Part shown: piece by piece, positions 42,447 to 64,000 of the stretch
Layout of the letters: each line of letters opens with the position of its first letter
Numbering within the stretch: position 1 is the stretch's first letter
Virus record (IMG/VR): IMGVR_UViG_3300023174_000052
Coordinates: 111,595-175,594 of that record
Direction: 5' to 3' (one strand)
DNA: 64,000 bases
Origin: a virus
The notes under the pieces: generated by a model
What the model was told of the DNA's origin: nothing
The model's database searches: none
Seen by the model: only the letters and a program-made list of their open reading frames with translations
Position numbers and translations under genes: made by a program

Positions 42447-42447
42447 C

Positions 42448-42744
42448 TTATCCTTCCTCTTCGACTTCATTTTCAATCGTTGAGAAAGTTTCTGCGACTT
42501 TTATTATCGCGTCTCTCGACAATCTCAAATCATCATGCACCCGTCTAATTTCAGGACTATCAAAAAACAAAGGTATTTCTAAAACTTTGTCGATAGATCT
42601 GATTCTTTCGTCCATGACAGCCAGACAATCTTCTATCGAATCCTGAACTCTGATTATAGTTCTTGCGAATCTATAACAATAAATTGCAAGAAATGTTGTG
42701 GAACAAATTAGTATTAAAATTATGAACCACAAAAAATATATCAC
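42448..42744 (-). CDS. Small membrane-anchored coiled-coil protein
   Basis: N-terminal ~22-residue hydrophobic helix followed by a coiled coil. Confidence 0.7.
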   Translation of the reverse strand: MIYFLWFIILILICSTTFLAIYCYRFARTIIRVQDSIEDCLAVMDERIRSIDKVLEIPLFFDSPEIRRVHDDLRLSRDAIIKVAETFSTIENEVEEEG

Positions 42745-43892
42745 AGTAATTCCCCGATAACCGCGTCGTATAGATCGCAGACGGCATTTATCGAATATTT
42801 TTCGCGAATGATTTTTGCTAAATCATCTGCCCACTCTTTAGGCTTAGAATAAGATTCAACTGTTTTTCGCATTCTACGTTTCGCATCAGGTTCGCGAACT
42901 TGTGCCCATCGAGCGCCTTGGATGAATATTGTACCATCTATTTTTTTATCAGAAACAGGAACTAAATCATATTCCACCTTCGAAAAATGACCTTTTGATA
43001 AAAATTCGAGATGTCCTGACCAGTTCGTTGCTAAAACTGGGAGTGCGGAAGCTGCCGCATCTATAAGAGGAAGCCCGTAACCTTCGCCTCTTGTTAGTGA
43101 AATCATAGACTTGACCTTGGGGCTCTTCATTAAGCCTGCCACTTCTTTTCCAGACATATCACCATTTAACAAATAGACTTTTGGAAATTCTCCCTTTCTA
43201 ACTTCCGACAATAATTTTTGAAATAATAAGACAAGTTGTTTTCTATGAAAAATACAATTTGTCCCTAAATTTGATTTGATGATAAGACCAACATTTTTAT
43301 CACCAGCGAACTCTTCACAAAACCACTTTACCGTGTGGAAAAGATTCTTTCTATCGGAATCTAGATCCATTCCAGTAACTTGTCCGAATAACAAGAAATT
43401 AAACGAAGTAGCTACTTCGTTTAACTCTAAGGGTAGAACATCTTTGTCTATTTCGCAGTTATATGCTTCTGGTACGACTGATATTTTCGTTGTGATTCCA
43501 CCACCAAGTGTCAAAGAATCGGAAGCAAACTTAGATGGAACAATAACATGATTCATCTTATTACATGCGATCTTCCATTCTGGATTACACTTATCTGTTT
43601 CAATACCTGCAGTTATTCCAACATTAACTTTCGCTAATTCTGGATCCCATTCATTCGGTAGTTGGATTTGAAGACTTAGATCGGGTTTTTCTTCAAATGG
43701 AGTCGATCGATCCATAATTTGTCCGACTAGACCGTCCAAATCGTCTCTATCGAGAAACCATGGAGTAATACCCCAGTTTAAAATTTGACACCTTACGTCA
43801 TGTCCACGAGATAGTGCCCATTTAAAGACTTGTCGAGCGTGTTCACCATAACCAGACTTAGAAAGAACAGGTCCTCTTACAATAACTTTCAT
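42741..43892 (-). CDS. GT-B (GT4-like) glycosyltransferase
   Basis: SGYGEHAR, VIVPSKF, DRKN, RGEGYGLPLIDAAA, ATNWSGHLEF. Confidence 0.88.
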   Translation of the reverse strand: MKVIVRGPVLSKSGYGEHARQVFKWALSRGHDVRCQILNWGITPWFLDRDDLDGLVGQIMDRSTPFEEKPDLSLQIQLPNEWDPELAKVNVGITAGIETDKCNPEWKIACNKMNHVIVPSKFASDSLTLGGGITTKISVVPEAYNCEIDKDVLPLELNEVATSFNFLLFGQVTGMDLDSDRKNLFHTVKWFCEEFAGDKNVGLIIKSNLGTNCIFHRKQLVLLFQKLLSEVRKGEFPKVYLLNGDMSGKEVAGLMKSPKVKSMISLTRGEGYGLPLIDAAASALPVLATNWSGHLEFLSKGHFSKVEYDLVPVSDKKIDGTIFIQGARWAQVREPDAKRRMRKTVESYSKPKEWADDLAKIIREKYSINAVCDLYDAVIGELL

Positions 43893-45133
43893 AGCGCATT
43901 AACCTCGAAATTCTTGCGATCCTTTCGCCAATTCTCAATGAGATCACCGAGCGTCTTGTCCCATGAATCAATAACTTTCTGATATCCAAACTCGCTTAGA
44001 GCATATTCTCGAGCCTTTGCACCTAGACGTTTTCTTCCATCTTTGCCAAGCTCGTAAAGTTTCATAATACCTTTCGCCGTAGTCTCAACCGTGACATAAT
44101 CTTCGTAAATGTATGGAACGCCCTGTGATCCAACAAGAGTCTTTAATTCGACAGGAAGCGCTGCGCCGTTCTCTTCGCCAGTGTAAGCATTAACGACTTG
44201 TCTAGTTAGACCACCAGTTTTCACTGCGACGATTGGATTCCCAACATTCATAGCTTCGAGAGTCGCAAGACCGAAACCTTCTGCGTATGAAATATTGATA
44301 CAAAAATCACTAACATTATGAATAACGTTCATTTTATCAAATTCGACGCGTTCTTTACTAAAGGCTACATTTTGTTCTATGTCGAGATTTCTTGCAACTT
44401 CTACAAGATTAGGACCCTCTTGATCGAAAGGATCGGTATGCATGATTAGAGTAGCTTTTCTGTGACCATGTTTTTGTTCAAGTTCGTCTAGGAAAAGTTT
44501 CCATGCCCATATAACATCTGAAGGTCGTTTTCTTCTAGCATTTCTATTGATCCACAGTCCGACAAAATGATCTGCTCTATGTGTACCGAGAAGAAGTATT
44601 TTATTCCTCAATTTATCCTGTTCAGACATAGGATAAAACATACCTGGTGGTAATGAATGAGGAATAAAATTAGTCTTTTCCGGAAATAACTTGTGGCAAA
44701 ATTCGTATGTCAAATATGAATGACAATTAATGAGATCGGTCGCCTCGTACATCGGACTATTAAACATGGGAGTAGGATAATTATCCCAAACGTGCCACCA
44801 TGCTATTGGACATATTTGATGTACTTCGTCTTCCATCTCAAAAAGCCAAGTAAAAAATCTTGGGTCGGTGAAGATCAACATAGCATCTGGCTTTTCGGTT
44901 GCGAGAGCTTCTCTAATCATCGCTCTGTTGCCGAATCCATCGATCGGCTTAATAATAAAATCTTCATTGACAACGATCGTACGATAATCGGCGTGTTTAA
45001 TCGCCGCGCCGAACTGTCTAAATGACCATCCACCTTTCTGTATAAGACCATTAATTAAGTGTCTTGTTTGATTTCCAACGCCCGATGGAGAAAGAGCGTG
45101 ATCAGAAAGAACCAAAACTTTTCTCTTCTTCAA
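43889..45133 (-). CDS. GT-B (GT4-like) glycosyltransferase
   Basis: SGVG, NRNARRK, EGFGLATLEAM (E-x7-E), VKTGGL. Confidence 0.9.
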   Translation of the reverse strand: MKKRKVLVLSDHALSPSGVGNQTRHLINGLIQKGGWSFRQFGAAIKHADYRTIVVNEDFIIKPIDGFGNRAMIREALATEKPDAMLIFTDPRFFTWLFEMEDEVHQICPIAWWHVWDNYPTPMFNSPMYEATDLINCHSYLTYEFCHKLFPEKTNFIPHSLPPGMFYPMSEQDKLRNKILLLGTHRADHFVGLWINRNARRKRPSDVIWAWKLFLDELEQKHGHRKATLIMHTDPFDQEGPNLVEVARNLDIEQNVAFSKERVEFDKMNVIHNVSDFCINISYAEGFGLATLEAMNVGNPIVAVKTGGLTRQVVNAYTGEENGAALPVELKTLVGSQGVPYIYEDYVTVETTAKGIMKLYELGKDGRKRLGAKAREYALSEFGYQKVIDSWDKTLGDLIENWRKDRKNFEVNAL

Positions 45134-45194
45134 ATTAACCTCGCTACAATATCATCCGGCGGATTAATGAAGATGTTAACGGTCTTTAATATAA

Positions 45195-45980
45195 TTATCT
45201 TACACATTGTCCTGATTTCGCAAAATCGCAATATTCGCAATTATGTTTATTTTTTGGAAAAAATCCACGTTTAACCGTATTAATCATGCTGGACACGAGT
45301 TTATTTGCCTTCTCTTGAACCTTGGGTCCTGCCGAAAATGCGACTAAATCGATAGACTTACCAGATTTCGCCCCTTTTTTAAGCACGACAAAAGCGGTAC
45401 CAACATCTGCGGAAGACAATTCGAATTTCTTCATGACGTGCCATTTATAGAGGATCAACTGTGCCTGTGTATTGAAATCTTCTTTTTTATCTCGACGCCA
45501 TCCATAGGCTGGACCTGTCTTCCAGTCGATGATTAGAAGCTTTTCCTTACCTCGTTTGTCTTTAAGCTTAAGAATCGCATCGATGAAACCTTTAAATTTA
45601 ATATCATGATTATCGATAGATTCCATAAGCGCATGTTCTGCATCGAGTGTCTCCCATTCCGGAAAATTTTCATCCAAAAATGTAGGAACATCATTAATCA
45701 CAGTTTCTGCCCAAGAACACCATTTTTCTACGTCAGGGAAACCTTTTTCTTGCCAAATCCTACGAATTTCTGACGTGCAAAGTTCTACGTCTACTTCTCG
45801 AGTCTTAAGATATTTTTCGCAAGACGAATGGACGGCAGTACCAAAATAAAGGTGTTCTGATTCTACATCTGCTTTGACTTTATCGATATAGGTCAGCTTA
45901 TGTTTCCACGGACACTCTGCCCAAGTTCGAACTTCAGAAAAAGAAATATGAGCTTTACCTGTTGGAAACGTATTAGACAA
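45195..45980 (-). CDS. PD-(D/E)xK nuclease, Cas4/AddB-like with 4-Cys Fe-S staple
   Basis: SFS...CPWK, GTAVH, E...KGFID...IIDWKT, QLILY, CEYCDF...C. Confidence 0.88.
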   Translation of the reverse strand: MSNTFPTGKAHISFSEVRTWAECPWKHKLTYIDKVKADVESEHLYFGTAVHSSCEKYLKTREVDVELCTSEIRRIWQEKGFPDVEKWCSWAETVINDVPTFLDENFPEWETLDAEHALMESIDNHDIKFKGFIDAILKLKDKRGKEKLLIIDWKTGPAYGWRRDKKEDFNTQAQLILYKWHVMKKFELSSADVGTAFVVLKKGAKSGKSIDLVAFSAGPKVQEKANKLVSSMINTVKRGFFPKNKHNCEYCDFAKSGQCVR

Positions 45981-46025
45981 TCATCACCCCACTCTAAACA
46001 ATATTGCGTGATGATTCGATAATTT

Positions 46026-46982
46026 TTAATCTTCTACATTAGAAATAGCTCTACCCTTTAAGCTTTTCCAGTCTTGTCTTGGTCTAACTTCAAGATTTTT
46101 TTCCCATACGCCCTTAAGAACTTTTGGATCTACGTTATTTTTTTCTAAAAGATAAATTAAAGCATTAATATCCTTTGGAAAACAACTTCCGCCGAAACCC
46201 ATGCTTTGTTCGCCAGTATCATCTGACGGCATTGGACCAGGAACTTGCCAGTGAGAATTACCCAGTCTTTTATCAAGAGTCGCTAATTCTATAATCGAAT
46301 TATAACTAATGTCATAACCAGCTTCGAAAAGAGCCTTACACCCTTGATACATTTCATTTGCAAAAGAAACTTTCGTAGCCAGAAAACAATTTGCTACATA
46401 TTTTACCATCTCGGCGTTTGTAGAAGACGTCTCGAATATCGGGACAGTTGGAAATGAGGACTTAAATACGGCCGTCACAAATTTAGAACTTTCTATTGGA
46501 CCACCGATGATGATTCTATCTTGGTTTCTCATATCATCGATAGCATTTGCTTCTGTTAAAAATTCTGGATTGAATACTACACTAATCGCAGATTTTTCGT
46601 ATTTTTTATTCCACGTTTCTGTAGTTCCTGGTGGTACTGTAGATTTTACTATGGCGATTCTTTGTTTGGAACTATTAATATTTTCGGATAAAACTTGTAA
46701 TACAGACTCGACAATTGAAGTATCACATGATCCATCTAAATTCATCGGAGTCGGCAAACAAATGAAATAAATCCCAGAAAATTCTTCAATAGATTCGCAA
46801 CACTCTATAAAAATCTCTAAGTTTTCGGGTGTAATAACATTTTCAAATTTGAACTGTTTAATTCCACCTTTCGAATTTTTTCCCGCTTTATCGTATGTAT
46901 AGACCTTATTTCCACGTTCGGACAAAACTGTGGTTAGACTTCCACCTACAAATCCTTGACCAATTACAGCTACGGTATGCAA
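46026..46982 (-). CDS. ugd: UDP-glucose/GDP-mannose 6-dehydrogenase family protein (C-terminal domain absent)
   Basis: GQGFVG, CLPTP, KSTVPPG, NPEFL, KY..N.FLA.K, GFGGSCFPKD (catalytic Cys). Confidence 0.88.
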   Translation of the reverse strand: MHTVAVIGQGFVGGSLTTVLSERGNKVYTYDKAGKNSKGGIKQFKFENVITPENLEIFIECCESIEEFSGIYFICLPTPMNLDGSCDTSIVESVLQVLSENINSSKQRIAIVKSTVPPGTTETWNKKYEKSAISVVFNPEFLTEANAIDDMRNQDRIIIGGPIESSKFVTAVFKSSFPTVPIFETSSTNAEMVKYVANCFLATKVSFANEMYQGCKALFEAGYDISYNSIIELATLDKRLGNSHWQVPGPMPSDDTGEQSMGFGGSCFPKDINALIYLLEKNNVDPKVLKGVWEKNLEVRPRQDWKSLKGRAISNVED

Positions 46983-46998
46983 ATAAACACCTAATTTA

Positions 46999-47952
46999 TT
47001 ACCATTTAAAGTTTTTTCTATAATACTCTACAAGTTCTCGTATTTCTTCATCGAAAATCTTTTTAGGTCTCCAACCGATCGCCTTTAATTTTTCATCGTT
47101 AAGAGCGTATCTAACGTCTTGTCCTTGTCTTACATAAGATAAATCGAGATAATCTTCATAAGATAATGAATCAGATTTAAAATAATTAGAAATTATTTTT
47201 TCAACTGTTAATCTATTAGATTGTTCACAGTTTCCTGCGATGTTAAAAATTTCATTTTTAACGTTTGAATCGATAATAGAAATAACGGCTTCTGCAGTAT
47301 CATCTGCGTGTAACCAATTTCTTACGGGTTTCCCTTCATTGTGTAATCTAATCTTTTTATTACGCTGTAATAACTTAACACTTAACGGTATTAATTTTTC
47401 AGGATATTGTCCCGTACCATAATTATTCGTCGGTCTCAATATTACATAATCGATATTATACGTTCTATGCCATGCTAAAACTAACATATCGGCCGCGGCC
47501 TTAGATGCCGAATATGGATTACTAGGTTTCAATGAATCACTCTCTACGTGTTGACCGTCGACTATGTCTCCATACACTTCATCGGTACTGAAATGTATAA
47601 AAATCGGTCGACTGGCTACATTCGTAGGCTTGCTCTTAATTAGATCTAATAAATTTTGAACGCCAATGATGTTCGTTTTAATGAATGAGTTAGAATTTAT
47701 TATGCTATTTCCAACATGCGTTTCTGCTGCTACGTTGATAACGTAATCACAATCAGGTAAATAATCTAAATCACATATATCTTTCTTTAAGAAAGTAAAA
47801 TTTTCATATTGTGAAAATGTATCTAGAAAATTCTCGTTGCTGGCGTAGGTTTGAGAATCGACTCCAAGTACCCTCCAACCTTTATCTAAGCACTTTCTGG
47901 TAATATGTGAACCGATTAATCCCAAACATCCTGTTATGATTACTATCTTCAT
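46999..47952 (-). CDS. rfbB: NDP-glucose 4,6-dehydratase
   Basis: TGCLGLIG, AAETHV, STDEVYG, PYSASKA, NNYG.GQYPEKLIP, RNWLH. Confidence 0.92.
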   Translation of the reverse strand: MKIVIITGCLGLIGSHITRKCLDKGWRVLGVDSQTYASNENFLDTFSQYENFTFLKKDICDLDYLPDCDYVINVAAETHVGNSIINSNSFIKTNIIGVQNLLDLIKSKPTNVASRPIFIHFSTDEVYGDIVDGQHVESDSLKPSNPYSASKAAADMLVLAWHRTYNIDYVILRPTNNYGTGQYPEKLIPLSVKLLQRNKKIRLHNEGKPVRNWLHADDTAEAVISIIDSNVKNEIFNIAGNCEQSNRLTVEKIISNYFKSDSLSYEDYLDLSYVRQGQDVRYALNDEKLKAIGWRPKKIFDEEIRELVEYYRKNFKW

Positions 47953-47956
47953 GTTT

Positions 47957-48571
47957 TTACTTGACTGTTTCGCAATTTTTAAATAATGGAAACTCTCTTA
48001 GGTCTCGATATTGAGGCTCTTCAGGTAGATCTTCGGCATGTTGAGGATAGTTTTGCATTAGCATTAGTCCTCGAGCGGCTTGTTCTGGGGTCATGTAAGC
48101 ATTATGGCCATTAATATCGATTTCATCTTCATGATACATCACTTCGCCGCGGCCTTCGTACCTAGCCTTTCTAAACCAGTCGCGTGCTTCTTCGCTATTA
48201 GTTAGAATCATTCCACCCTTTCCAATTTTTAAATGCTTTTTGATATGGAAAGAAAGACACATATAAGAGTCTTGAACATACATATTAGATGTTAATCTTT
48301 TCGCAGCGTCATAGATTGGGTACGGTTTTAGTTGATAAACACCCTTCCAACTTACTTCTTCAAACTTTACAGTTCCGCCAGCATGGATTATTGACTGTGG
48401 TACAGAAAGATAAGTCCTTGCAGGAATAGTAACTTCTTTAACGCCTAAGTATTCACAACACAATAAAATTGCGTCGGTACAATTGTCAGTTGAAACAGCA
48501 TATTTTGAACCACAATAATGCGCCATTTCTTCTTCGAACATTTTGATGATTTTGTAAGGATTATGTAGCAT
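47957..48571 (-). CDS. DegT/DnrJ/EryC1/StrS-family PLP sugar aminotransferase, minimal form
   Basis: FEEEMAHY.G.KYAV...CTDA, IPARTY, YDAA, SFHIKKHL.IG.GGMILT (PLP lysine). Confidence 0.85.
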   Translation of the reverse strand: MLHNPYKIIKMFEEEMAHYCGSKYAVSTDNCTDAILLCCEYLGVKEVTIPARTYLSVPQSIIHAGGTVKFEEVSWKGVYQLKPYPIYDAAKRLTSNMYVQDSYMCLSFHIKKHLKIGKGGMILTNSEEARDWFRKARYEGRGEVMYHEDEIDINGHNAYMTPEQAARGLMLMQNYPQHAEDLPEEPQYRDLREFPLFKNCETVK

Positions 48572-48958
48572 TTATTCTCTTTCCAATAGGTAGTATTTAA
48601 TTTTAAAACCAGACGATTGAAATAATTTTAAACTGGCCTCGTTTGTTATTTTAATTTTTGCCAGGGCATTTGGAAATTTATTTTTGATCTGTTCTAACAT
48701 AAATTTTCCAACGCCTAATTTTTGATAGTCTGGATGGGTTGCGACTCGTATATCATCATTGATAACGCCGACGTATCCTGCAGGTTTATCATCGATTAGA
48801 CAGATGAAGAAGCAATCGCTATATTTCTTCATGTATTCTTTTTGTTGTTCTTCTGTGATGTAAGAAGTTTCTATAAATCCTGGGATAACTCTTGGGTCGT
48901 TTCTTAATTGTCTAATAAATTCATGATATTCGGGTTTATCAGCTTGTACTAATAGCAT
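48572..48958 (-). CDS. GNAT N-acetyltransferase (amino-sugar acetylase-like)
   Basis: LRNDPRV (PseH-like), HPDYQKLGVG acetyl-CoA loop, NEASLKLFQSSGF. Confidence 0.85.
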   Translation of the reverse strand: MLLVQADKPEYHEFIRQLRNDPRVIPGFIETSYITEEQQKEYMKKYSDCFFICLIDDKPAGYVGVINDDIRVATHPDYQKLGVGKFMLEQIKNKFPNALAKIKITNEASLKLFQSSGFKIKYYLLERE

Positions 48959-48961
48959 GTA

Positions 48962-49750
48962 TCACCAAATGCATTCTTTTTTTGAATATTCATCGTGTTG
49001 ATTTAACCAATATCCCCGTAAATATCCTCTCGATCCGATCCACCCATTCATACCCAGTAAAGGATTAAGTGTGCTACCGATATCGACGTACGTGTTGTCG
49101 GGAAATTCTTTGTACAACTCGTATATTAGAATATTACTCAGACTAGCCGCGGAAAATAAAAATAAATGATCTTTTACATCATTTTCTTTGACCCACACTT
49201 TCATCTCGTCTACAAGTCCAATATTTCTAATGTGACAGTTATTACCTACTCTAAAATCTTTTACTAAATTTAACGGAAATTTAGACAAGTCTGCGATTTC
49301 ATTACACACGTATACGACCTTATAATCTTTCATCGCAGGTAAAGCTTGCTCTACGAATAGTGGATAATTCGAATTTATAAAAACATTAGACCAAGTCAAA
49401 TGTGCTTCATCTTTTGATAGATGGTTATCAAATTGCCATGCGAACCACTCTTCGCCAATGCAACACCTACAACATATTCCCTTATAGTAACTGTCTTGTT
49501 TATGTTCAAAACACTCTATTAACTTCTTTCTAAAATCTTGTTGTGTAGAAGGGTCAAAAACCTTATGTTCTTCGGCGCCCCAAAATCCACCATGAGCCTG
49601 GCCGTGCACTATCGCCATATTTTCCGAGATAACGATTAGTTGATTTTTAATAACCATCAACTCGCCATCTGAGAATCTCGAAAATGCAAAATGCTTTTTA
49701 TCTTTTAATAATTGAACAATATGAAAAAAATCACCCTTAAACGTTTTCAT
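48962..49750 (-). CDS. Putative GT-D-fold glycosyltransferase
   Basis: FAFSRFSDGEL (RxxDGE) near the N-terminus and YVDIGS near the C-terminus. Confidence 0.6.
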   Translation of the reverse strand: MKTFKGDFFHIVQLLKDKKHFAFSRFSDGELMVIKNQLIVISENMAIVHGQAHGGFWGAEEHKVFDPSTQQDFRKKLIECFEHKQDSYYKGICCRCCIGEEWFAWQFDNHLSKDEAHLTWSNVFINSNYPLFVEQALPAMKDYKVVYVCNEIADLSKFPLNLVKDFRVGNNCHIRNIGLVDEMKVWVKENDVKDHLFLFSAASLSNILIYELYKEFPDNTYVDIGSTLNPLLGMNGWIGSRGYLRGYWLNQHDEYSKKECIW

Positions 49751-50183
49751 TTCTATACCTTATTGGAAAATCAGTACAAACTCCGAGACACGTAGACACA
49801 TCATCATTAAAAATTTCTGGCATTACTGCTATGCTATTCTCTATGGGTTGTTTCCCAGGATAAGCCCAAATATGACCTTTCGATGTCAAAGTAACATCGT
49901 CATTTTGATGCCAGAAATAATTGAAGTCATTAGTTTTATTGAAATGAATTATAGCTTCAATATTCTTACAATGTATCCATAATTTGTCTTTTCTTGCGCG
50001 CAACCAAGCAATATCGATTTGATATTGTGGTTCATCGTGACCTAAAAATATTTCTAATTTATCATTTATCCATACATCGACTTCGACTTCAAAATGAAGC
50101 AAAATGGCCTCGTCGATATAATCCGGACTATTCTCGAGATTCGATTTTTTTCCATTAATATTTCCACGATGAGAAATTATCAT
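49737..50183 (-). CDS. GDPD/PLC-like phosphodiesterase (short)
   Basis: ISHRGN, ENSP, VEVDVW, LGHD, WIHCKN, GVCTD. Confidence 0.8.
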   Translation of the reverse strand: MIISHRGNINGKKSNLENSPDYIDEAILLHFEVEVDVWINDKLEIFLGHDEPQYQIDIAWLRARKDKLWIHCKNIEAIIHFNKTNDFNYFWHQNDDVTLTSKGHIWAYPGKQPIENSIAVMPEIFNDDVSTCLGVCTDFPIRYRNENV

Positions 50184-50848
50184 AATTTTTCCAATTGATA
50201 ATTACCCGTATATCCTGTAGAAATATGTACACCATTGTGATTTTTAACGTAGATAAAATCAAATATTTTATTTATAGAAATTTTATTTTCTTTTAAAAAA
50301 TTCAATAATGAGACTTCATTTGAAGTATCGTTTTTCGAATGTCTATCAATTTCATAATATTCTAATACAAATCGGGATATTACATTCATCGTCGCACGAT
50401 CACCGACATAAAATTCATCATTTATCCATTCTTGTTCATTCCATTCGTTTAGATGAAAAGACTTAGCAGATGAATATATCGAATTTTTATTTAAATTATC
50501 GAATTCTAAATTGAGACTAGAACTAAAAAATAGATCGCATCTATTTTTAATGTAGAAATCATAATCATCAGGTGTTTGTTCTATGACACTTTTTAGATTC
50601 CAGAATTGCCAAAACCCAGATTGACCTGCGTTATTGTCACGATTTTGATACCATTTTGTTTTTTCTATTTCTATTTTGGGAGTAGTAAAAATTTCTTTTA
50701 TTTTTAAATCACTAGATTTCCAATCTTGATAATAATGTTCGAAACAAGAAACAAACAAATCGTATTGTCCAAAATAATGATTATAGTTTTTAACTATATT
50801 TTTATTACCTCTATAAGGTCCGGACATTATGACCGCTGCATTCTTCAA
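50180..50848 (-). CDS. Putative sugar transferase (WavE-like GT-A pattern)
   Basis: AVIMSGPYR...YDFYIKNRCDL...INDEFYVGD; paralog-like to 52910..53653. Confidence 0.5.
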   Translation of the reverse strand: MKNAAVIMSGPYRGNKNIVKNYNHYFGQYDLFVSCFEHYYQDWKSSDLKIKEIFTTPKIEIEKTKWYQNRDNNAGQSGFWQFWNLKSVIEQTPDDYDFYIKNRCDLFFSSSLNLEFDNLNKNSIYSSAKSFHLNEWNEQEWINDEFYVGDRATMNVISRFVLEYYEIDRHSKNDTSNEVSLLNFLKENKISINKIFDFIYVKNHNGVHISTGYTGNYQLEKL

Positions 50849-56065: not shown

Positions 56066-57066
56066 TTGTTGTCTCCGATCCATTTTTCTACTATTTTAGG
56101 ATGACCCATATTAACGAAAATCCAATTGTTTTTTGATTCGTCCCATGGAGCATGAAATACATGACCACCTGTTTCTGTCTCAAGACGCATAGCGTATTGT
56201 TTAATCATCGAGTCGGTAATTTCGTTCCATGTTAGTCCTGGGAAAAATGGATTATTTCTTTCGTCGCGACTTTCATTATAGAGACTCTTCCAAGAATCAT
56301 TCCAGAAAGTCCGAAAATTCCTTATCTTCCTTTCTATATTAAACCATGAATAGTGATGAACAACGGGTAATTTTGCCCAAACATCGTTTAGATAATTTTG
56401 AATTTGTGGCACAAGAGAATCGTTTTTAAGAGCCGCGAATTTAAATGCATCAAAATCGCTCGGTAAAAATCCTGCGCATGGAACTACTTTTCCAGTTTTC
56501 TCGAAAATATAATCGCAGCCATCAGTACCATGATGCGCATATAAAAGCCCATTTACATACTTTCTTAAATGCAGAGGTATACCATGCGTAATATCAGGAT
56601 CGTTTTTAGATATCCTCCATTTCCAAGGAGTAACATCTAAACGAGCTCTACCTTCACGACCCCAGTAATCTATGACTGGCAGTGCAAGTAAAACGAAATC
56701 ATTTTGTTCATGAACACTTTTGGAGATTGTTTCGATCAATGACACTTGACTTTCATGCACAATTTCATCGATATCAAACTGCCAAAGAATATCGCCCGTA
56801 CACTTTTTTCTAGATAAAGCCTTAGTATGCCCATCGTAAATACCCTTGTTTGGGGCCGACCAATTTATCGATGAGTCATGATATACTTTTAGATTCTTGT
56901 GTTCTGTAGCTAACGAATTTAGTTCATCTAGTGTCCCATCTTTTCCATCTGAGGTGTCATAGACGACTACTTCATCTGCGAATGCAAGATGACTTAATAT
57001 AGATTCAATAAATGGATATTCCATTTCCTTAGCATTTCTAGTTGTACAATATGCGCTAATTTTCAT
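56062..57066 (-). CDS. GT2-like glycosyltransferase
   Basis: ISAY...N, ADEVVVYD..DGKDGT, CTGDILWQFDIDE, VHHYSW. Confidence 0.8.
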   Translation of the reverse strand: MKISAYCTTRNAKEMEYPFIESILSHLAFADEVVVYDTSDGKDGTLDELNSLATEHKNLKVYHDSSINWSAPNKGIYDGHTKALSRKKCTGDILWQFDIDEIVHESQVSLIETISKSVHEQNDFVLLALPVIDYWGREGRARLDVTPWKWRISKNDPDITHGIPLHLRKYVNGLLYAHHGTDGCDYIFEKTGKVVPCAGFLPSDFDAFKFAALKNDSLVPQIQNYLNDVWAKLPVVHHYSWFNIERKIRNFRTFWNDSWKSLYNESRDERNNPFFPGLTWNEITDSMIKQYAMRLETETGGHVFHAPWDESKNNWIFVNMGHPKIVEKWIGDNK

Positions 57067-57077
57067 CGTTTCACCAC

Positions 57078-57983
57078 TTATTTTATGAATGTTAGAGTTC
57101 TATCCCAAAATACTTTTCTTCTATTATAAAGCCATGCGAGTGTATTTTGTTTATTCTTATCAATTAACCAATCCTCATCAGCGTGCTGGACTTTGTCGTT
57201 TGTTACTACTTCGCAACCTAGTAGAGTAGCTTCTGTAACCATTCTATTGGAAACGTCTGCTCCTCTGGGAAGAGTAATGAATCCTTCAGCATTTGCCATA
57301 GCTTCCAGTACTTGATCCGGGCTCATATTTTTTATTAATTTATAGCTTTTACCATTGTCCTTTAACCATTTAATGGCATCATCTGTGCCTTTAATCCAAG
57401 AATCAGAATCTAGAGTCAACCATCCACTCTTTTTTCTATCTGGCAAAGATTCCATTAATGGAACTATTTTTCTGAAGAAATTCTCATCGAAGGTCGCCGA
57501 AAGTACTTCACAATTGGCTAACCGCAGAGCTGGGAATCGATCTAAATAAACTTGCATATGTTTTTTTGAACAGAACCAGACTTGTTTGGCTTTTAGAAAG
57601 AATCTTTCTATTAATTTGCCAATCGGTTCTTTTTCGCAATTACACTTTTCTTTTCCTTCTATTTCGTGTTTCTCTATAGAACGCCACTTACAGAACTTAT
57701 AGTCGTGTTCGAAGACACTATAACTAATCCCAGAAGATATAAAATATTCTATAGCTGTTGGATGTAAGTTAGAAAAATTACCAAATACCCAGTGACAGTG
57801 CTTATTCTGTTCAACTATCGCTTCAGTAAGTTGATGACTTCTAACTATTAAAAATGGTATAGGTGCCGATTCATGCAGAGCATACATGGATAATTCAGCA
57901 CCACCGATTAGATCTTGTATTAAGAAGTCTTGAACAAAGACTAATTTAACAGCTTCTTCTACTTTAAAAGGACTAGTAAACAT
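57078..57983 (-). CDS. GT-B-like glycosyltransferase
   Basis: GGAELS, EHDYKFC, WIKG, RMVTEATLLGCEVVTN. Confidence 0.7.
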   Translation of the reverse strand: MFTSPFKVEEAVKLVFVQDFLIQDLIGGAELSMYALHESAPIPFLIVRSHQLTEAIVEQNKHCHWVFGNFSNLHPTAIEYFISSGISYSVFEHDYKFCKWRSIEKHEIEGKEKCNCEKEPIGKLIERFFLKAKQVWFCSKKHMQVYLDRFPALRLANCEVLSATFDENFFRKIVPLMESLPDRKKSGWLTLDSDSWIKGTDDAIKWLKDNGKSYKLIKNMSPDQVLEAMANAEGFITLPRGADVSNRMVTEATLLGCEVVTNDKVQHADEDWLIDKNKQNTLAWLYNRRKVFWDRTLTFIK

Positions 57984-58124
57984 AATCTAAAATATAATAG
58001 CTGTTAGACTATTTATATAACTAATAGTTATTTATTAAAATTAGTAAATTAGTTATTAGTCTTTAGTATCTATTAATTAATTAATTAAATAATAGGAGAC
58101 TTCTTAGAGAATTTATAACGAAAT
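57984..58124. other. Very AT-rich intergenic regulatory region
   Basis: 23 G+C in 141 bp (~16%); four TTAGT at 58041/58049/58056/58063; (TTAA)4 at 58073..58088; 7-bp inverted repeat at 58017..58031. Confidence 0.7.
58010..58017 (-). promoter_or_regulatory. Candidate T4-type late promoter TATAAATA
   Basis: Exact T4 gp55 consensus 26 nt upstream of the first gene of the glycosylation island; the AT-rich context raises the chance of coincidence. Confidence 0.45.
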
Positions 58125-61100
58125 TTATGATATTTTTTCTATTGTAATTACAGTATCACCGTCGTTAATATCATCGTCTGACGATGCATCTGCAACGATA
58201 TTCACCTGAGGGTTTCTAGCTATACTATAATAATACCTCGGCGGAATTGCGCCGGTAAAAACTTGTTTGGATCGCCAACATGTCAATTTCTCAGCTACGA
58301 CAAAATCGTCAGTTTTACCAGTGGTACTATCTACTATTCTTCTATCAACACTGCGGGCTTTAAATCTTAGATAATCATTTTCTTCTAAATTACACGTTAA
58401 ATTAAACGTAATAGTTTTTAGCCGGTCTTCTACACCTAGAGGTTTATCGCGATCGAAAAGTAAGTTATTGGCTGATACTAATCCATCAGGTGGTGTGTTA
58501 TCGAACGTATCATCTTTATCATAATATCTTAATACACTCGATGGATTGAGAGGATTGCTATTATTACTTCCTACCTCGTCCGCTTCAGACGTTGTATCAA
58601 AGTACGTATCAAGAAACCCAGTAAGATAACTGTATGGAGCATTATCGTTAGACCAGTTATAAGAATAACCTCTAGCTATTTCTGTCCCGTTTATACCCTG
58701 TATAGATGAAACATCTCCAAAATCGCATGATTCTTCGATCAGAGGAAAAAATTTAATACTATTTTGAACGGAATTAAATTTTGCTCGTAATATGCTAAAA
58801 AATGATATTATATTATTCGGCGTAATTTGCATTCTTCCTCTATTAGCGTATCTAAACGTAGCGTTAACTGTAATTTTATATTTACCAGCTTCTTTTATCT
58901 GAAACGTCGTATATCTTGAAGTACCATTAGAATTGTGCGTCTGTTTCGTAACAAAATTTCCATAATTAATTTTTTCATCAGAGAAATCTAATATTCTTCC
59001 ACCGCCGACAATAGTATGATCCTTGTTATAAGAATAGTTACCTGACAAATTTGGGTATCCTTTGTCTACTCCTGCTAATTTAACATATATCCGCTTTCGT
59101 GTTGAACCACCATTAGTTGTGCTATCGTTATTATCAAATTTTGTGTTGGCATAATATCCTGTTTCGTTGTTTGCGCCCCAATTACTTAAACCCGCTATAT
59201 AAATTTTTTGTTGTGTACCGTCAGTAAGTTTCGTTATCGAAACAGTAGAAGTCAAGGTTTCTTTCGAGATTTTAACTCTAACTTCTATACCAGAACCTAG
59301 CGCTGCAGCATATTGATCCTGATTCATCGTCGCACTATTTCCAGTAATAGTCAAATAGTTGGGCATTAGAGAATTGTCAGAAGTTAAAGGTTCTTCGGCA
59401 CCTAGACTATTGACACGATAAACTTCCCAATCAGTGTCTAACAACACAAGCGCGCTAGTCAAATTTTGTAATGTTGCTGTGAAACGAATTATTTGATTAG
59501 TAGGATTAAAACTACCATTAGCTGACTTATTAAAGTAAGTTTTATCTACACTTAACGTAAGTAATTTAGAATCGGCGCCTGCTTTAGATTTTGTGAGCGT
59601 CTGTTCTTGAGTTATAACGGGTTTTTCTATCCCTTCGAGATCTTTTACATAAATAGAAAAGGTCGTTTTCGCTACGTCTAAAGATAAGTTAGACGTGGAT
59701 TGCGGTGTGAATTTTAATTTTTTATTATTTGATCCACCAACAATCGCGCCAGAATTTGAGCTATACGTAATACCAGTTGGCGGTCCAGCGACAACTCTAA
59801 ATTGTCCATTACCGGTAAAAGAACCACCAGTAATAGCAGTCAACGCAGTCGCTCCTTCAAACACATAAACTTCAGTTTCACCAGACGCGTAATTCGAAGC
59901 GGCTATTACACCACTTCCATCGGTCGGAAAAGAATGCGATGGATTTGAAACTATAATAGTAATAGCATTAGTCCCAGATTTAAGCCCTACAATTGTAACT
60001 GAATCTGTGGCTACAGCTTCCGTCACGCCCGATTCATATGTTTCAACTATAAATGTTTTAGGAATAGTAAAATACGCTGGAAATGTAGTTTGAACCTGTA
60101 CCGTAAATTTACCCGAATTATCTTGACCAAGATATGTTCTAGCATCCGGATTATCACTCCATGCACTCCAGAATTTATAGTTTAATCCTGCCGTTTTATG
60201 ATTATTTGCAACCGCAGTAAGAACAATGTTATCGTTAGGAGTCGGCGTCGTCCCATCTGTACTGTACGTAATGCTATATGTCGACGATGTTAATTTAACG
60301 CTCTTACCAGGCACGCCATCATTAACAGATAAGATTGACATTTCGTCAACTACGTAATTACTCCAGCTTGCGACTATTCTTATTCCTTTACCTGGTTTAT
60401 AATCGGGACTGACATAAGAATGAATGGCATTTGAAAATTGAGTCGAATTGACCGTAATAGCGTCTTTATCGCCATCGATAGTTGGGGATCCATCGTCTTC
60501 ATAATCAATCTCGGATTGACTAAAATAAATCTGATCGCCCGGGTCATCTGCTAGTAATCTATAACCACCATCTGCTAAAATCTTATAAATTTTCCACGTT
60601 ACTATAGCATTCGACGATAAATTACCTTTTACATTCGCAGTAAATTTAGATTCTTGGTCTGACTCTACATCACCTTCACTAGTGATTTTGAAAATTTGAG
60701 AATTTGCTCGAACTACTAAAAATCGTCCTGTCTTATTTTTGGTAATCTTAAAAACTCGTTCGATAATAGTGTCGTCAGAATTATCGACTAATACTCCATC
60801 TTGTATTTTCGCCGCCAATCGAAACGAAACAGTATCAGACGAATTAGACCACGAAGAAGTATTATCTATTTCGTATATTCCTTCATTATTAATTCTTATT
60901 ACTAGACCATCAATCGAATAACCATAAGTTGGAATCGTCGAAAATTTGTTTTGAGTATCTATATAACCAAAAGTAACAACTGGGCTCACAAGCTTCGTAT
61001 TACCTTTCATTACTACAAATTCACCAGTTTTATTACTAAGCCCTGCAGAATTAGTAGCACCAGTTGACCCAGCAGCGATTGTATCAAATTCGTTCGTTAA

Positions 61101-62501
61101 ATAAGAAGTGTACGCGTCTTGCCCTCTAAAAGAAAGACCTTTCGATTCCCAAATATTGGAAAGTTGTCCTGACGGTCTCGAAGAACTTAAACGAGTTTTA
61201 ACATACAACAAATGATTCTTGGTATCCATGTAAGAATCATTTATTTTAGAATTTTTTACCGAAAAATAATCTTTAGTGAACTCTTCTAAATTTCCATCGT
61301 AATAATCCGCGAGATTATATTGCGAAGCAGCTTCGACCGTAGGTAAATCAAACTTATTGGGGTCCATAAGACCTAAAACTATTCCGGAAGAAGCGTATGA
61401 TTCACCTGTTGATATCCATGAACCATCTATTTGTTTCCATATCTGGTGGCGCTTTGTATCGAAATATATGTCTCCGTCTATAGCTTCTTCGAACTCGGAA
61501 GGTAAAGTTTCATCGCTATTCCATATATTCGCATCACCAGATTGATTTGTCCCTTGGAATACTTTGTTTCCTCGCTTACCTGCGAATGACTCTCCGATTA
61601 CTTGCCACAAATTGTCATCGATACCATTTGTAGCAGGATTATCTAAAGCTATTTTTTTCCATAGTCTATGTGAATCTATTTCTATATAAACATCTCCGAT
61701 TATTGCATCTACAAGCTGGGGTCTCATACTAACGCTATTGGGACTTAAATTTCCTTGAAATAGACCATTAACACGAGGGCCTGGTGATCCATCTCGACCC
61801 CTAAATGTTGCACCTCGTTGTACCCAACCCGTATCAGTCTTTTTCCAAATTAAATGCGAATCGGTTTCGATGTATAGATCGTCATTCTTTGCATCAAAAA
61901 ATCCATCGGGTAAATTGGGGCTAGAAGGTAAGAGAGTATTCGGATCAGGCGCGCCTTCATAAACCGAACGACCTCGTTCTCCAGGTTGACCATCGACACC
62001 GTCTTCGCCATCTCTACCGAATGAAAGACCCGCATGTTGCCACTTCAATTCTCTTGGCGTGTCACTGACTTTCGTCCAGATCATTCTCCTTGAAGTAAGA
62101 GTCAATCCAGTTTCGATATAAATGTCGCCGATTTCTGCATCACTTATAGACACAACATTTGGATTTGATGGACCCTGAAATATTTTGCTTCCTCGAGGTC
62201 CCTGAGCACCTTGTTCACCACGTAGCTCGAAACCCACACCCCAGCCACTCTCAGTCCTCTTATAGAGCTGCATGTCATCGAGGTCGATATATACCACGAC
62301 TTCGGTAGGAAGAGTGTCAGAGGGCTGTCCATTCGCTGCATCGATAAGCTTCGCAACTCCGCCTTGTGCGGCAAGTGTGCTCATGAAATAAGAGACAGAG
62401 TCTCTGTCTTTGAATTTTATCTTTCCATTTTCATCGACGAATAACGATGCAGGATTTTCTTGACCGTCTTCTAAGACAATTTCGTTTACTATTGTTGACA
62501 T
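58125..62501 (-). CDS. Long tail/capsid fibre: six hinge+short-collagen repeats, tandem Ig-like modules, C1q/BclA-CTD-like end
   Basis: Repeated GDIYIET...IWKK...W...G.SF.G..G units; GxDA/GKS-initiated beta modules; FQIKEAGKYKITVNA and terminal VITIEKIS. Confidence 0.8.
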   Translation of the reverse strand: MSTIVNEIVLEDGQENPASLFVDENGKIKFKDRDSVSYFMSTLAAQGGVAKLIDAANGQPSDTLPTEVVVYIDLDDMQLYKRTESGWGVGFELRGEQGAQGPRGSKIFQGPSNPNVVSISDAEIGDIYIETGLTLTSRRMIWTKVSDTPRELKWQHAGLSFGRDGEDGVDGQPGERGRSVYEGAPDPNTLLPSSPNLPDGFFDAKNDDLYIETDSHLIWKKTDTGWVQRGATFRGRDGSPGPRVNGLFQGNLSPNSVSMRPQLVDAIIGDVYIEIDSHRLWKKIALDNPATNGIDDNLWQVIGESFAGKRGNKVFQGTNQSGDANIWNSDETLPSEFEEAIDGDIYFDTKRHQIWKQIDGSWISTGESYASSGIVLGLMDPNKFDLPTVEAASQYNLADYYDGNLEEFTKDYFSVKNSKINDSYMDTKNHLLYVKTRLSSSRPSGQLSNIWESKGLSFRGQDAYTSYLTNEFDTIAAGSTGATNSAGLSNKTGEFVVMKGNTKLVSPVVTFGYIDTQNKFSTIPTYGYSIDGLVIRINNEGIYEIDNTSSWSNSSDTVSFRLAAKIQDGVLVDNSDDTIIERVFKITKNKTGRFLVVRANSQIFKITSEGDVESDQESKFTANVKGNLSSNAIVTWKIYKILADGGYRLLADDPGDQIYFSQSEIDYEDDGSPTIDGDKDAITVNSTQFSNAIHSYVSPDYKPGKGIRIVASWSNYVVDEMSILSVNDGVPGKSVKLTSSTYSITYSTDGTTPTPNDNIVLTAVANNHKTAGLNYKFWSAWSDNPDARTYLGQDNSGKFTVQVQTTFPAYFTIPKTFIVETYESGVTEAVATDSVTIVGLKSGTNAITIIVSNPSHSFPTDGSGVIAASNYASGETEVYVFEGATALTAITGGSFTGNGQFRVVAGPPTGITYSSNSGAIVGGSNNKKLKFTPQSTSNLSLDVAKTTFSIYVKDLEGIEKPVITQEQTLTKSKAGADSKLLTLSVDKTYFNKSANGSFNPTNQIIRFTATLQNLTSALVLLDTDWEVYRVNSLGAEEPLTSDNSLMPNYLTITGNSATMNQDQYAAALGSGIEVRVKISKETLTSTVSITKLTDGTQQKIYIAGLSNWGANNETGYYANTKFDNNDSTTNGGSTRKRIYVKLAGVDKGYPNLSGNYSYNKDHTIVGGGRILDFSDEKINYGNFVTKQTHNSNGTSRYTTFQIKEAGKYKITVNATFRYANRGRMQITPNNIISFFSILRAKFNSVQNSIKFFPLIEESCDFGDVSSIQGINGTEIARGYSYNWSNDNAPYSYLTGFLDTYFDTTSEADEVGSNNSNPLNPSSVLRYYDKDDTFDNTPPDGLVSANNLLFDRDKPLGVEDRLKTITFNLTCNLEENDYLRFKARSVDRRIVDSTTGKTDDFVVAEKLTCWRSKQVFTGAIPPRYYYSIARNPQVNIVADASSDDDINDGDTVITIEKIS
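61120..62330 (-). repeat. Six degenerate ~55-90 aa protein repeats
   Basis: VYIDLD/DIYIET/DLYIET/DVYIEI/DIYFDT/DSYMDT, each followed by (I/L)(W/Y)xK...W and in most copies G-x-x triplets. Confidence 0.8.
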
Positions 62502-62529
62502 TTAATCGCCTAAAATAAGAGTGTTACAA

Positions 62530-64000
62530 TCATCCACAGTGGTAAGTACAACCGACGAATGCTTTTCTATAAGTCTGTCCGTTCCAAACAAACTCTTCGC
62601 ATCGATAGACTTGCGAATTTAAATCGAAGATACAATCGCATGTAATTTTTGCTACAGTATAATTTGCTAAAAATTCCGAATCCTGTTTCATGCCCAATCC
62701 AGGAATTTCGCAAGTTGTAATATAATTTCCATTTTCTAAATCACCATTAATATTACATACCCAAATTCCACCTTCACCTAAAGAATTGATAACCAAACGA
62801 TTGTCTTCTGGCGACTTCTTTTCTTCTACGGAAACAAATAGTCCCAAAAGATATTCACGTGAAGATTGATTAGGGTCTTCATGATCAGATATGACACCAA
62901 AAACAGACCTTTGATTTCTAACATTCGAGAGAGTAACAATAGGTAAAGCTTCATTTATACTAATATTATTTCTTGGATCATCGACAGCGATCGTATTGTC
63001 GTATTCTCCCGTCGAGACGACTATCAATCCAACGCTTGAATACTCTAAAAGATTATCATTTAATGGTTTGACTTTGTGTTGACCGGTAAAATTAACTTGA
63101 TTACTCGCAGTAGCAGCAGAGTTAAAATATCCTTTCGCTGTACCATTATACGCGAATTCTAAGTTATTCGAAGTGTTAACGTTATATCCCCATCTATTCG
63201 AAGAACCACTCGCCTCCAATGATATGGCTCTAGATGTATTATTATTTTGTTTAATTTGTATGTGATTCGAACCAGCAATCGTCGGCGTTCCAAAGTAAAG
63301 AGTATCAGACGATCGTAATCTAACGTCGGCATTAACATACGCTGTTGTTGCGTCTAACGTAGTAGAAGATCCTAACGTTATTCTTGTTGTCCCAGCGCTA
63401 TCTATTATATTATTGCCTTGAATTTGTAAGTCACCTGCGATGACAACTTTTCCTAAACTTTGTAATGTTATGTTTCCACCGCCAGAACCCGATATTTGAT
63501 TACTATTCAATATAACCGGTTGCTCAAAATAAGAAGAAGCAGTAACCAATAATAAATCTGATGATGTATTACCAATATAAGAGTTTCCACTCACGAACAT
63601 ATTGTTAGTTACATTTATTCCACCATTAACGTCTAATTTTTGCGAAGGACTAATTGTTCCAATACCTATATTAGATCCATTATTATAAATGTTTGTACTG
63701 TTTAAAACCCAGCTCGTACCGTTCCAATATGTTGTCGCTCCCGTAGTAGTGCCGTTCGATAATAATCCTTGCGCTCCTTGAGCACCAATAGCACCCTGAG
63801 CACCAATAGCACCCTGAGCGCCTGTGGTACCTTGAGAACCCTGAGCACCCTGAGCGCCTGTGGTACCTTGAGAACCCTGAGCACCCTGAGCGCCTGTGGT
63901 ACCTTGAGCACCAATAGCACCCTGAGCGCCTGTGGTACCTTGAGCACCAATAGCACCCTGAGCGCCTGTGGTACCTTGAGCACCTATAGCACCCTGAGCG
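62530..64000 (-). CDS. Collagen-like fibre protein with C-terminal intramolecular-chaperone-like domain (5' end outside window)
   Basis: The frame of the 62530..63600 ORF stays open to the edge: ...([12 protein letters not shown])n GLLSNG...YWNGTSW...[17 protein letters not shown]...NFTGQH...GEGGIWV...YTVAKIT...[10 protein letters not shown]. Confidence 0.88.
63766..64000 (-). repeat. 36-bp tandem repeat encoding ~26 Gly-X-Y collagen triplets
   Basis: GGTACC recurs at 63826, 63862, 63898, 63934 and 63970 (exact 36-bp period); two unit variants, [12 protein letters not shown] and [12 protein letters not shown]. Confidence 0.95.

Follow-up and report, generated by a model that had tools for sequence, protein, structure and literature searches.

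Large clusters of sugar genes are already documented in T4-like aquatic phages, and in the T4-like cyanophages they have been known since 2005, P-SSM2 carrying 24 of these genes (PMC1079782). An island of this kind is described here from a 175,594-bp contig of IMG/VR (record IMGVR_UViG_3300023174_000052), which appears to derive from an uncultured, aquatic, T4-like jumbo phage. The island consists of 18 contiguous open reading frames (ORFs), g1 to g18, and lies in the terminal 64 kb of the contig (positions 111,595 to 175,594, hereafter the window, the end of which is also the end of the contig). What is new is its anchor-plus-cassette architecture, with the glycosyltransferase (GT) genes g17 and g18 as a conserved and testable core. 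To judge by comparison with related contigs, genes g15 to g18 form a conserved anchor, and genes g1 to g13, plus g14, a variable cassette.

Among the giant viruses, chloroviruses carry capsid glycans and mimivirus carries fibril glycans with viosamine. The island shares with these systems virus-encoded nucleotide-sugar pathways, soluble transferases and methylation, and its dehydratase, aminotransferase and N-acetyltransferase match the logic of giant-virus 4-amino-4,6-dideoxyhexose synthesis. No specific orthology was established; one weak match of g17 is to chlorovirus B736L, and the host here is bacterial. An analogy of architecture only can be drawn with the streptococcal serine-rich repeat adhesins, which are O-glycosylated in the cytoplasm by a GtfA/GtfB pair and then by GT-D and GT-A enzymes; solved members of the GT-D fold extend O-glycans on these adhesins in the cytoplasm. 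The island is likewise all-soluble, with a tandem GT-B pair, a GT-D enzyme and GT-A enzymes of GT8/GT2 type, but no serine-rich repeat protein was identified here, and GtfA/GtfB were not among the PDB sequence matches of g17 or g18. To our knowledge, virion glycosylation has been proven only in actinobacteriophages. Phages Che8, Corndog and Myrna (Freeman et al. 2023, as described in citing papers) reportedly have a few transferases, with a glycan shown experimentally on capsid and tail-tube C-termini. Phage-encoded soluble transferases are common to those systems and to the island, for which a virion target is proposed below; the island differs in having seven transferases and its own sugar pathways, and in being known from genes alone.

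Many soluble glycosyltransferases and nucleoside diphosphate (NDP)-sugar enzymes in a large aquatic phage are also found in the clusters of the T4-like cyanophages P-SSM2, S-SCSM1, S-SCSM2R, S-CAM9 and B23, and GT6-like enzymes occur both there and here. In the islands of S-CAM9 and B23, homologs of g8 (57-59% identical) and g10 (~46%) were present, while the other 16 genes had no match in those two regions, and the g6, g11 and g17 families had no close match in Kyanoviridae records. The cyanophage clusters examined lie among auxiliary metabolic genes (hli, psbA, transaldolase), whereas the present island is fixed ahead of sigma factor and baseplate genes and is anchored by a nuclease and a GT-B pair.

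A conserved anchor and a variable cassette

Relatives of g17 were found on 152 viral contigs, 80 of which were analysed for the content of the locus. Genes g17 and g18 were present in all 80 loci, and the nuclease gene g16 in 75, directly upstream of g17. The small gene g19, which lies between the GT pair and the sigma factor gene, was found in 78, as were the sigma gene (g20), the next two genes and the gp25-like gene, and Baseplate_J in 76. The order g16-g17-g18-g19-sigma-gp25-Baseplate_J was kept on one strand and at constant offsets across related contigs, and the GT pair was joined to the sigma/baseplate block in all of the 78 informative contigs. Occurrence of g15 was lower (50 of 80 loci), as was that of a short-chain dehydrogenase/reductase (SDR) enzyme (45 of 80), while the genes from g1 to g13, among them g1, g2 and g8, were found in only 3-4 loci. 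Median identity was 65% for g17, 46% for g18, 44% for the sigma factor and 39% for gp25, and g17 is the most conserved gene of the region. The anchor belongs to the sigma/baseplate block in a large, uncultured lineage of T4-like phages from aquatic habitats.

Upstream of the anchor, 145 ORFs sampled from 15 relatives were mostly other sugar genes, including 27 SDR epimerase/dehydratases, nine DegT, seven PseB/CapD-type dehydratases, seven CMP-sugar synthetases and four NeuB, as well as GT2, GT6, UDP-galactopyranose mutase (Glf), formyltransferases and methyltransferases. Two smaller conserved units were also recognised, a more local one of g3, g11 and WecB, shared with six other contigs, and one of g8 and g10, which is shared with cyanophages. 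The island of a relative with a complete viral genome (G001, 320,934 bp) holds an O-carbamoyltransferase and an FkbM methyltransferase (L010:14716-16952, L011:376-3414), and the PhoH gene after this island carries LAGLIDADG, Hom_end and Hint (intein-type) domains.

The portal protein of the contig (window 4302-6230), which together with gp25, Baseplate_J and the gp55-like sigma factor is one of the T4-like markers in the window, was closest among cultured phages to those of Microcystis phage Mel-JY01 (43%), Flavobacterium phage immuto (40%) and Rhodothermus phage RM378 (35%), ahead of the T4-like cyanophages (~28%). Orthologs of g17 and g18, with the nuclease, occur in these same phages, partly so in that of Rhodothermus, and the g16-g17-g18 module is syntenic in immuto and Mel-JY01. 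The immuto island additionally contains GT2, WecE, a methyltransferase and a mini-DegT. Two scans of 185,579 cellular genomes recovered the g17 family on only two contigs of one metagenome-assembled genome (MAG), which are probably phage DNA mis-binned into it, and the family appears to be restricted to phages. The exceptional MAG is labelled 'Halobacteriovorax sp.', with 61% identity.

CheckV estimated the completeness of the contig at 52%, which would put the phage genome at roughly 340 kb. The full length of the stretch is present in one lake-water metagenome, possibly its source, and two further aquatic runs contain only small shares of it. The island DNA had no megablast match among 50,697 phage records.

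Gene content of the island

The island runs from 57983 down to 42741, entirely on the minus strand like all relevant genes of the window, with junctions between its ORFs of -26 to +61 bp (Table 1). The ORF listing therefore agrees with an earlier note on this DNA, made from the sequence without database searches, which had described 18 contiguous co-oriented genes at 42741..57983. That note had considered 17 of them glycan-related; support was obtained for 15, with g7 and g9 left without assignment and g16 encoding a Cas4-like nuclease. Its up to nine glycosyltransferase candidates were reduced to seven, namely g1 (GT-B-like), g2, g3 and g6 (GT-A), g11 (GT-D), and g17 and g18 (GT-B), but all three fold types that it named found support from profiles, the ESM Atlas, or AlphaFold2 (AF2) models with Foldseek. 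Profiles or motifs likewise supported each of the other enzymes it proposed, i.e. WecB, the sugar dehydrogenase, RmlB with an aminotransferase and a GNAT enzyme, the methyltransferase, the HAD-nucleotidyltransferase and the phosphodiesterase. No paralogy among the island proteins was detected by phmmer.

Table 1. Features of the island and its flanks, listed by descending window coordinates.
Feature	Coordinates	Strand	Basis
Collagen-like fibre protein, 5' end cut by contig end	62530..64000	-	Pfam Collagen E 5.5e-12
1458-aa protein, probably fibre- or tail-associated	58125..62501	-	Partial similarity, residues 833-1007
141-bp AT-rich gap with TATAAATA	57984..58124	-	Predicted possible promoter
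g1, phage-specific GT-B-like protein, 301 aa	57078..57983	-	ESM Atlas structure neighbours
g2, probable GT-A (GT2-like)	56062..57066	-	Pfam GT2 E 2.6e-3, below gathering score
g3, probable GT-A (GT2-like)	55319..56083	-	Pfam GT2 E 7e-4, below gathering score
g4, UDP-GlcNAc 2-epimerase (WecB), predicted to yield UDP-ManNAc	54294..55322	-	TIGR00236 229 bits, above cut-off; PF02350 E 5e-65
g5, S-adenosylmethionine (SAM)-dependent methyltransferase	53654..54319	-	Methyltransf_11/12/25 E ~1e-9
g6, GT-A fold glycosyltransferase, GT6/GT8-like	52910..53653	-	AF2 pLDDT 86.6 and Foldseek
g7, predicted protein, phage-only family	52224..52919	-	ESM Atlas: unnamed viral clusters only, plus weak GT2 lead 0.93
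g8, HAD (beta-phosphoglucomutase-like) and sugar-1-phosphate nucleotidyltransferase fusion	50845..52227	-	HAD_2 E 1e-29; NTP_transferase E 5e-11
g9	50180..50848	-	No match in Pfam, NCBIfam, PHROGs, PADLOC
g10, 148-aa mini phosphodiesterase, GDPD-type motifs	49737..50183	-	Motif conservation
g11, GT-D fold glycosyltransferase	48962..49750	-	AF2 pLDDT 78; Foldseek
g12, GNAT N-acetyltransferase	48572..48958	-	Acetyltransf_1 E 1.6e-9
g13, 204-aa 'mini-DegT', short form of sugar aminotransferase fold	47957..48571	-	DegT-like
g14, NDP-hexose 4,6-dehydratase, RmlB-like	46999..47952	-	TIGR01181 E 1e-87, 294 bits, below 365-bit cut-off
g15, short two-domain NDP-sugar 6-dehydrogenase	46026..46982	-	TIGR03026 201 bits, above cut-off
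g16, PD-(D/E)XK / Cas4-like nuclease	45195..45980	-	PF12705 E 5e-27; Cas4 models
g17, GT4 (GT-B) glycosyltransferase	43889..45133	-	Glycos_transf_1 E 7e-12
g18, the other GT-B protein, found alongside g17 in every locus	42741..43892	-	Weak GT4 matches
g19, 98-aa acidic protein, one N-terminal membrane segment	42448..42744	-	Hydropathy over 19 residues (KD19) 2.43 at residue 1
g20, gp55-like late sigma factor	41715..42476	-	phrog_234 E 9e-5; weak sigma-70 matches
gp25-like baseplate wedge gene	38993-39472	-	Pfam GPW_gp25 E 1e-8
Baseplate_J baseplate wedge gene	37159-38991	-	Pfam E 4e-8

Six island proteins had no Pfam match, and four of these (g1, g6, g10 and g11) could be resolved. The ESM Atlas neighbours of g1 were phage GT2/GT1 fusion proteins and GT9, with template modelling (TM) scores by query of 0.83-0.94. 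The model of g6 matched 4ayl, 4cj8, BoGT6a, ABO transferases and glycogenin in Foldseek (E 4e-5 to 7e-4), and none of the 120 matches listed among its 432 homologs carried a Pfam domain. For g11, the top three Foldseek matches were all DUF1792 (4phr, 5v4a and 4pfx; E 5e-6 to 2e-5, TM 0.52-0.55), with the next match more than 1000-fold weaker, and the D-x-E motif D28-G29-E30 was invariant in seven homologs; the match of g11 to PF22882 (GT-D-like) lies below cut-off (E 0.12), so that the assignment holds at the level of fold only. Sequence alignments of g6 and g11 against solved structures returned nothing, the folds alone being informative, and neither protein had a match in deposited phage genomes. 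The invariant residues of g10 (H5-R6, E17-N18, E34-x-D36 and H49-D50) were recovered among 2699 homologs at 58-81% identity, and its motifs H-R, E-N, E-x-D and H-D correspond to those of glycerophosphodiester phosphodiesterases (GDPD).

Among the remaining proteins, g2 has a D-I-D motif at 98-100 and a weak homolog in the immuto island, and g7 has a homolog in G001. Six T4-like cyanophages (S-8S55, S-PRM1, S-CAM9, DSL-LC03, B23 and B3) carry homologs of the g8 fusion, at 57-59% identity; in B23 the gene directly behind the g8 homolog is a homolog of g10, which in S-CAM9 stands two genes further on. Across 81 sequences g17 has 133 invariant positions, including E285-x7-E293, while g18 has 50 and keeps the first motif Glu (E270) with no second Glu. 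Screening of the island with PADLOC matched only Cas4 models, for g16.

Two of the enzymes are unusually short. The PLP lysine is retained in g13, but ~80 residues from the interior of a DegT aminotransferase are missing, as is its entire small domain, and g15 keeps the catalytic Cys motif while the usual C-terminal domain is absent. The g13 family comprises 159 cluster representatives at E<1e-30, mostly of 200-220 aa, and g13 is 44% identical to a 214-aa protein of immuto; the best 120 matches of g15 were all 308-369 aa long, at 53-70% identity, and represent at least 120 clusters, many on contigs of more than 100 kb. Truncated pseudogenes were considered for both g13 (204 aa) and g15 (318 aa) and rejected, because the two short forms are large conserved families, that of g13 with its ortholog in immuto. 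Natural fusions of the mini-DegT were also seen, one with GNAT and one with GT1 and an FkbM methyltransferase.

An enzyme set of this composition might also serve a soluble product, such as a free oligo- or polysaccharide or glycosylated small molecules, or might rewire the nucleotide-sugar pools of the host for auxiliary metabolism or counter-defence; no macromolecule of the phage would then be the acceptor. In its favour, all the island enzymes are soluble, two island genes are without assignment, and the g8 and g10 pair is very widespread (2699 g10 homologs), also outside structural modules. This explanation nevertheless seems quite improbable, as seven transferases of four fold classes would suggest that several sugars are joined in order on a defined acceptor, and a fixed link to the baseplate block is unexpected for general metabolism.

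Membrane components

In a crude hydropathy scan, no 19-residue window of g1 to g18 reached a Kyte-Doolittle value of 1.7, in keeping with the transmembrane-free island that had been proposed. Initiating transferases (PF02397 and PF00953) and the flippase PF01943 were absent from this contig, G001, immuto, Mel-JY01 and S-CAM9; the controls were positive, in 10 and 12 of 14 genomes for PF02397 and PF00953. The corresponding islands of 41 related contigs comprise 359 ORFs, of which none had two or more hydrophobic segments and one had a single borderline segment. The view that the membrane machinery of O-antigen and capsule loci is missing therefore stands by profile for the initiating transferase and the Wzx-type flippase, and by the hydropathy scan only for the Wzy and ABC families. 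Compared with a bacterial Wzx/Wzy- or ABC-dependent O-antigen or capsule locus, the island is without a polyprenyl-phosphate initiating transferase and, in the scan, without multi-pass components. The gene families present, with no lipid-carrier initiating transferase or flippase, support what had been put forward from the sequence, a soluble multi-enzyme system that would be able to make several activated sugars and to join them, with a methyltransferase.

The glycan and its acceptor

From the observed gene content, conservation pattern and lack of membrane parts, we infer sugar identities, order of steps, timing and acceptor as follows. The island would be a cytoplasmic glycan-assembly locus, and the chain is most likely carried on outer virion proteins (fibres or baseplate periphery), although this assignment is tentative and falls a little short of an even chance. 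A hexose phosphate would be activated by g8, a 4-acetamido-4,6-dideoxyhexose would be made by g14, g13 and g12, UDP-ManNAc by g4 and a uronic acid donor by g15, while g5 would methylate and g10 would have a phosphodiester role. At least seven soluble glycosyltransferases would then build a multi-sugar chain on a non-lipid acceptor supplied by the phage; in this model its inner sugars come from the g17/g18 pair, and an outer part, specific to the lineage, from the variable enzymes. The occurrence of g17/g18 orthologs in phages of hosts from different phyla makes a host-specific acceptor unlikely. An acceptor supplied by the phage is favoured by a GT pair that is fixed to the sigma/baseplate block, seemingly phage-restricted, present in phages of hosts of different phyla, and, in g17, more conserved than structural genes.

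Genes of probable fibre proteins and of the baseplate flank the island. Upstream, beyond a 141-bp gap whose existence was confirmed, are the collagen-repeat protein and the 1458-aa protein listed in Table 1. In the first, G-A-Q, G-A-I and G-T-T triplets precede a globular C-terminal part, and the G-T-T triplets are repeated (62530-64000); threonine-rich collagen-like regions of Bacillus BclA are O-glycosylated. The second had no Pfam or PHROG match, its residues 833-1007 being ~35% identical to proteins of Bacillus phages annotated as tail or 'autotransporter'. Downstream, the gp55-like sigma factor and the baseplate genes (gp25 and Baseplate_J) are as the earlier note had them.

A test of the tripeptide [ST]-G-S gave a statistically real signal. 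It was 2.9-fold over-represented (z 11.8) in 13 large Ser/Thr-rich proteins of the contig, probably of the outer virion, while its permutations were not (G-[ST]-S 1.0, [ST]-S-G 0.9); examples in the window are at 35669-37159, 32335-35667, 13099-15420 and 15463-16731. The 18 island enzymes lack it, and T4 long tail fibres showed no enrichment. Nearly all of the 105 sites are unique, but their context is of the hydrophobic-turn-hydrophobic kind that is typical for turns of a beta-helix. The motif is thus as likely to be structural in origin as to be a sequon, and was not counted as the latter.

The context of these sites is one of several observations that weigh against a virion acceptor. There is no direct evidence for any acceptor, and the 1458-aa protein beside the island has no [ST]GS site. 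Similarity of g17 and g18 is of a generic GT4 kind (BshA, MshA, sucrose-phosphate synthase, chlorovirus B736L), and profile and PDB sequence searches gave no specific link of either to known protein O-glycosyltransferases. A small membrane protein, g19, is conserved after the GT pair. The adjacency to fibre genes, which the earlier note had pointed out, is not conserved among relatives: in G001 the island comes after DNA polymerase B and dUTPase, and in immuto and Mel-JY01 it is far from the portal gene. As to late timing, the octamer TATAAATA that had been noted before the island is indeed present, at 58010-58017 (minus strand), 26 nt ahead of the g1 ATG, but it is not recurrent (5 in the window against 8.9 expected, 7 in the 175-kb contig). 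Being rare and not enriched, it is not established as a promoter class and was rejected as a late promoter; a sigma-70 and terminator scan gave fewer matches than the shuffle expectation. Lastly, bacterial O-antigen loci likewise encode peripheral glycosyltransferases that are soluble, and a lack of membrane segments is therefore compatible with the use of host lipid carriers.

This last point, together with the non-conserved fibre adjacency and the non-recurrent octamer, is why a host-surface role is kept, though as an unlikely one. The soluble enzymes would in that case act on undecaprenyl-phosphate intermediates, lipopolysaccharide (LPS) core, glycolipids or S-layer/pilin glycans of the host by way of its initiating transferase, flippase and ligase, and would alter the surface of the infected cell, for example in superinfection exclusion or progeny release. 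It is the usual reading of the cyanophage 'LPS' clusters, the 24 genes of P-SSM2 having been read as LPS genes (PMC1079782) and those of S-SCSM2R, with 13 glycosyltransferases among 22 genes, as cell-wall genes (PMC12801897), and the g8 and g10 homologs of B23 and S-CAM9 (46-59% identical) lie inside glycosyltransferase islands. The GT4 relatives of the GT pair include lipid-acting enzymes, g19 would supply a conserved membrane protein behind the pair, and the swappable cassettes resemble the diversity of O-antigen loci. Set against this are the GT pair itself, which is 60-88% identical across contigs, has orthologs in phages of hosts from different phyla with differing envelopes, and keeps a fixed position inside the sigma/baseplate block, and the lack of any membrane component in 41 islands or in the complete genomes. 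Lytic T4-like phages would, moreover, presumably gain little from altering a cell that is about to be lysed.

DNA modification

A further alternative is that some of the transferases, chiefly g17 and g18 beside the nuclease g16, glycosylate a hydroxylated pyrimidine in the phage DNA while g16 acts on unmodified DNA. Phage DNA glycosylation uses BshA/MshA-like GT-B enzymes, HAD phosphatases, nucleotidyltransferases and epimerases, and is able to attach as many as three sugars, or a hexuronic acid; the enzyme types of the island resemble these published pathways (PMC13326640; bioRxiv 10.1101/2023.12.21.572611). Weak matches of g17 and g18 to PF20706 ('GT4 in conflict systems') also fit. The contig encodes a thymidylate-synthase homolog of the MilA/dCMP-hydroxymethylase type (contig position 31123-32103), for which the best PDB matches were MilA and in which the equivalent of ThyA N177, the cytosine-specificity position, is Asp. 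The earlier statement that no base-hydroxymethylating enzyme is present thus holds within the window, but not for the contig, where this enzyme lies ~122 kb away. Beside its gene are those of a carbamoyltransferase and an ATP-grasp protein, with an NDP-sugar epimerase/dehydratase directly downstream; the latter is at contig 30092-31111 (L019:6092-7111) on the minus strand, ~80 kb ahead of the window. This operon enzyme may conceivably add a sugar step to base modification.

The likeness to known phage DNA glycosylation (T4 glucosyl-hydroxymethylcytosine, RB69/DLP3 arabinosyl-5-hydroxycytosine, TET-linked glycans) therefore extends to GT-B, HAD, nucleotidyltransferase and epimerase enzymes and to a hydroxymethylcytosine-type pathway in the same genome. 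The island differs in standing apart from the base-modifying genes, and in having relatives in which the GT module occurs without thymidylate-synthase homologs or with sugar-free DNA. The distance of ~122 kb from the hydroxymethylase operon argues against a DNA target, and none of the ten ORFs scanned in that operon was a glycosyltransferase. The 5-hydroxy-dCMP synthases are marked by Asn where E. coli ThyA has Asp169 (PMC13326640), whereas the contig enzyme keeps Asp there (R-S-S-D), which indicates that it is not of that type (the RB69/DLP3 route). Mel-JY01 and RM378 have the GT module and no thymidylate-synthase-family gene. DNA of immuto, analysed by liquid chromatography with ultraviolet and mass spectrometric detection, contained canonical dA, dC and dT plus formyl-preQ1, with no mention of glycosylation, so that a phage with the syntenic nuclease-GT-GT module has no reported sugar-bearing bases (bioRxiv 10.1101/2023.04.13.536721). 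The island transferases are neutral (pI 5.9-6.8), and seven transferases with four sugar pathways exceed any described DNA glycan. Modification of DNA by the GT pair is accordingly regarded as very unlikely.

Significance

Carried further, the virion reading would describe an aquatic T4-like lineage of more than 150 contigs with a protein-linked glycan coat, in which a phage-restricted GT-B pair adds the inner sugars and the swapping of cassettes determines the outer ones. This is put forward with some reserve, as a possibility rather less than evenly balanced, and with the same reserve the outer sugars may be nonulosonic acids, galactofuranose, amino-dideoxyhexoses and uronic acids in different members. 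Because cultured relatives exist (immuto and Mel-JY01), the g17/g18 pair offers a single experimental handle. The island also exposes compact, conserved enzyme forms without described biochemistry, i.e. the 200-aa mini-DegT, the two-domain sugar dehydrogenase, and the 148-aa GDPD-like protein whose partner is a HAD-nucleotidyltransferase fusion.

If it is the virion that carries the glycan, particle glycosylation of a complex and variable kind would extend from a few actinobacteriophages to an abundant group of aquatic phages that infect Gram-negative bacteria and cyanobacteria, and would matter for host recognition, grazing and the stability of particles. The cyanophage 'LPS genes', annotated since 2005 without a tested function, would then have a purpose as well. 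Should the coat exist as proposed, these phages would have 'glycotypes' analogous to the O-serotypes of bacteria.

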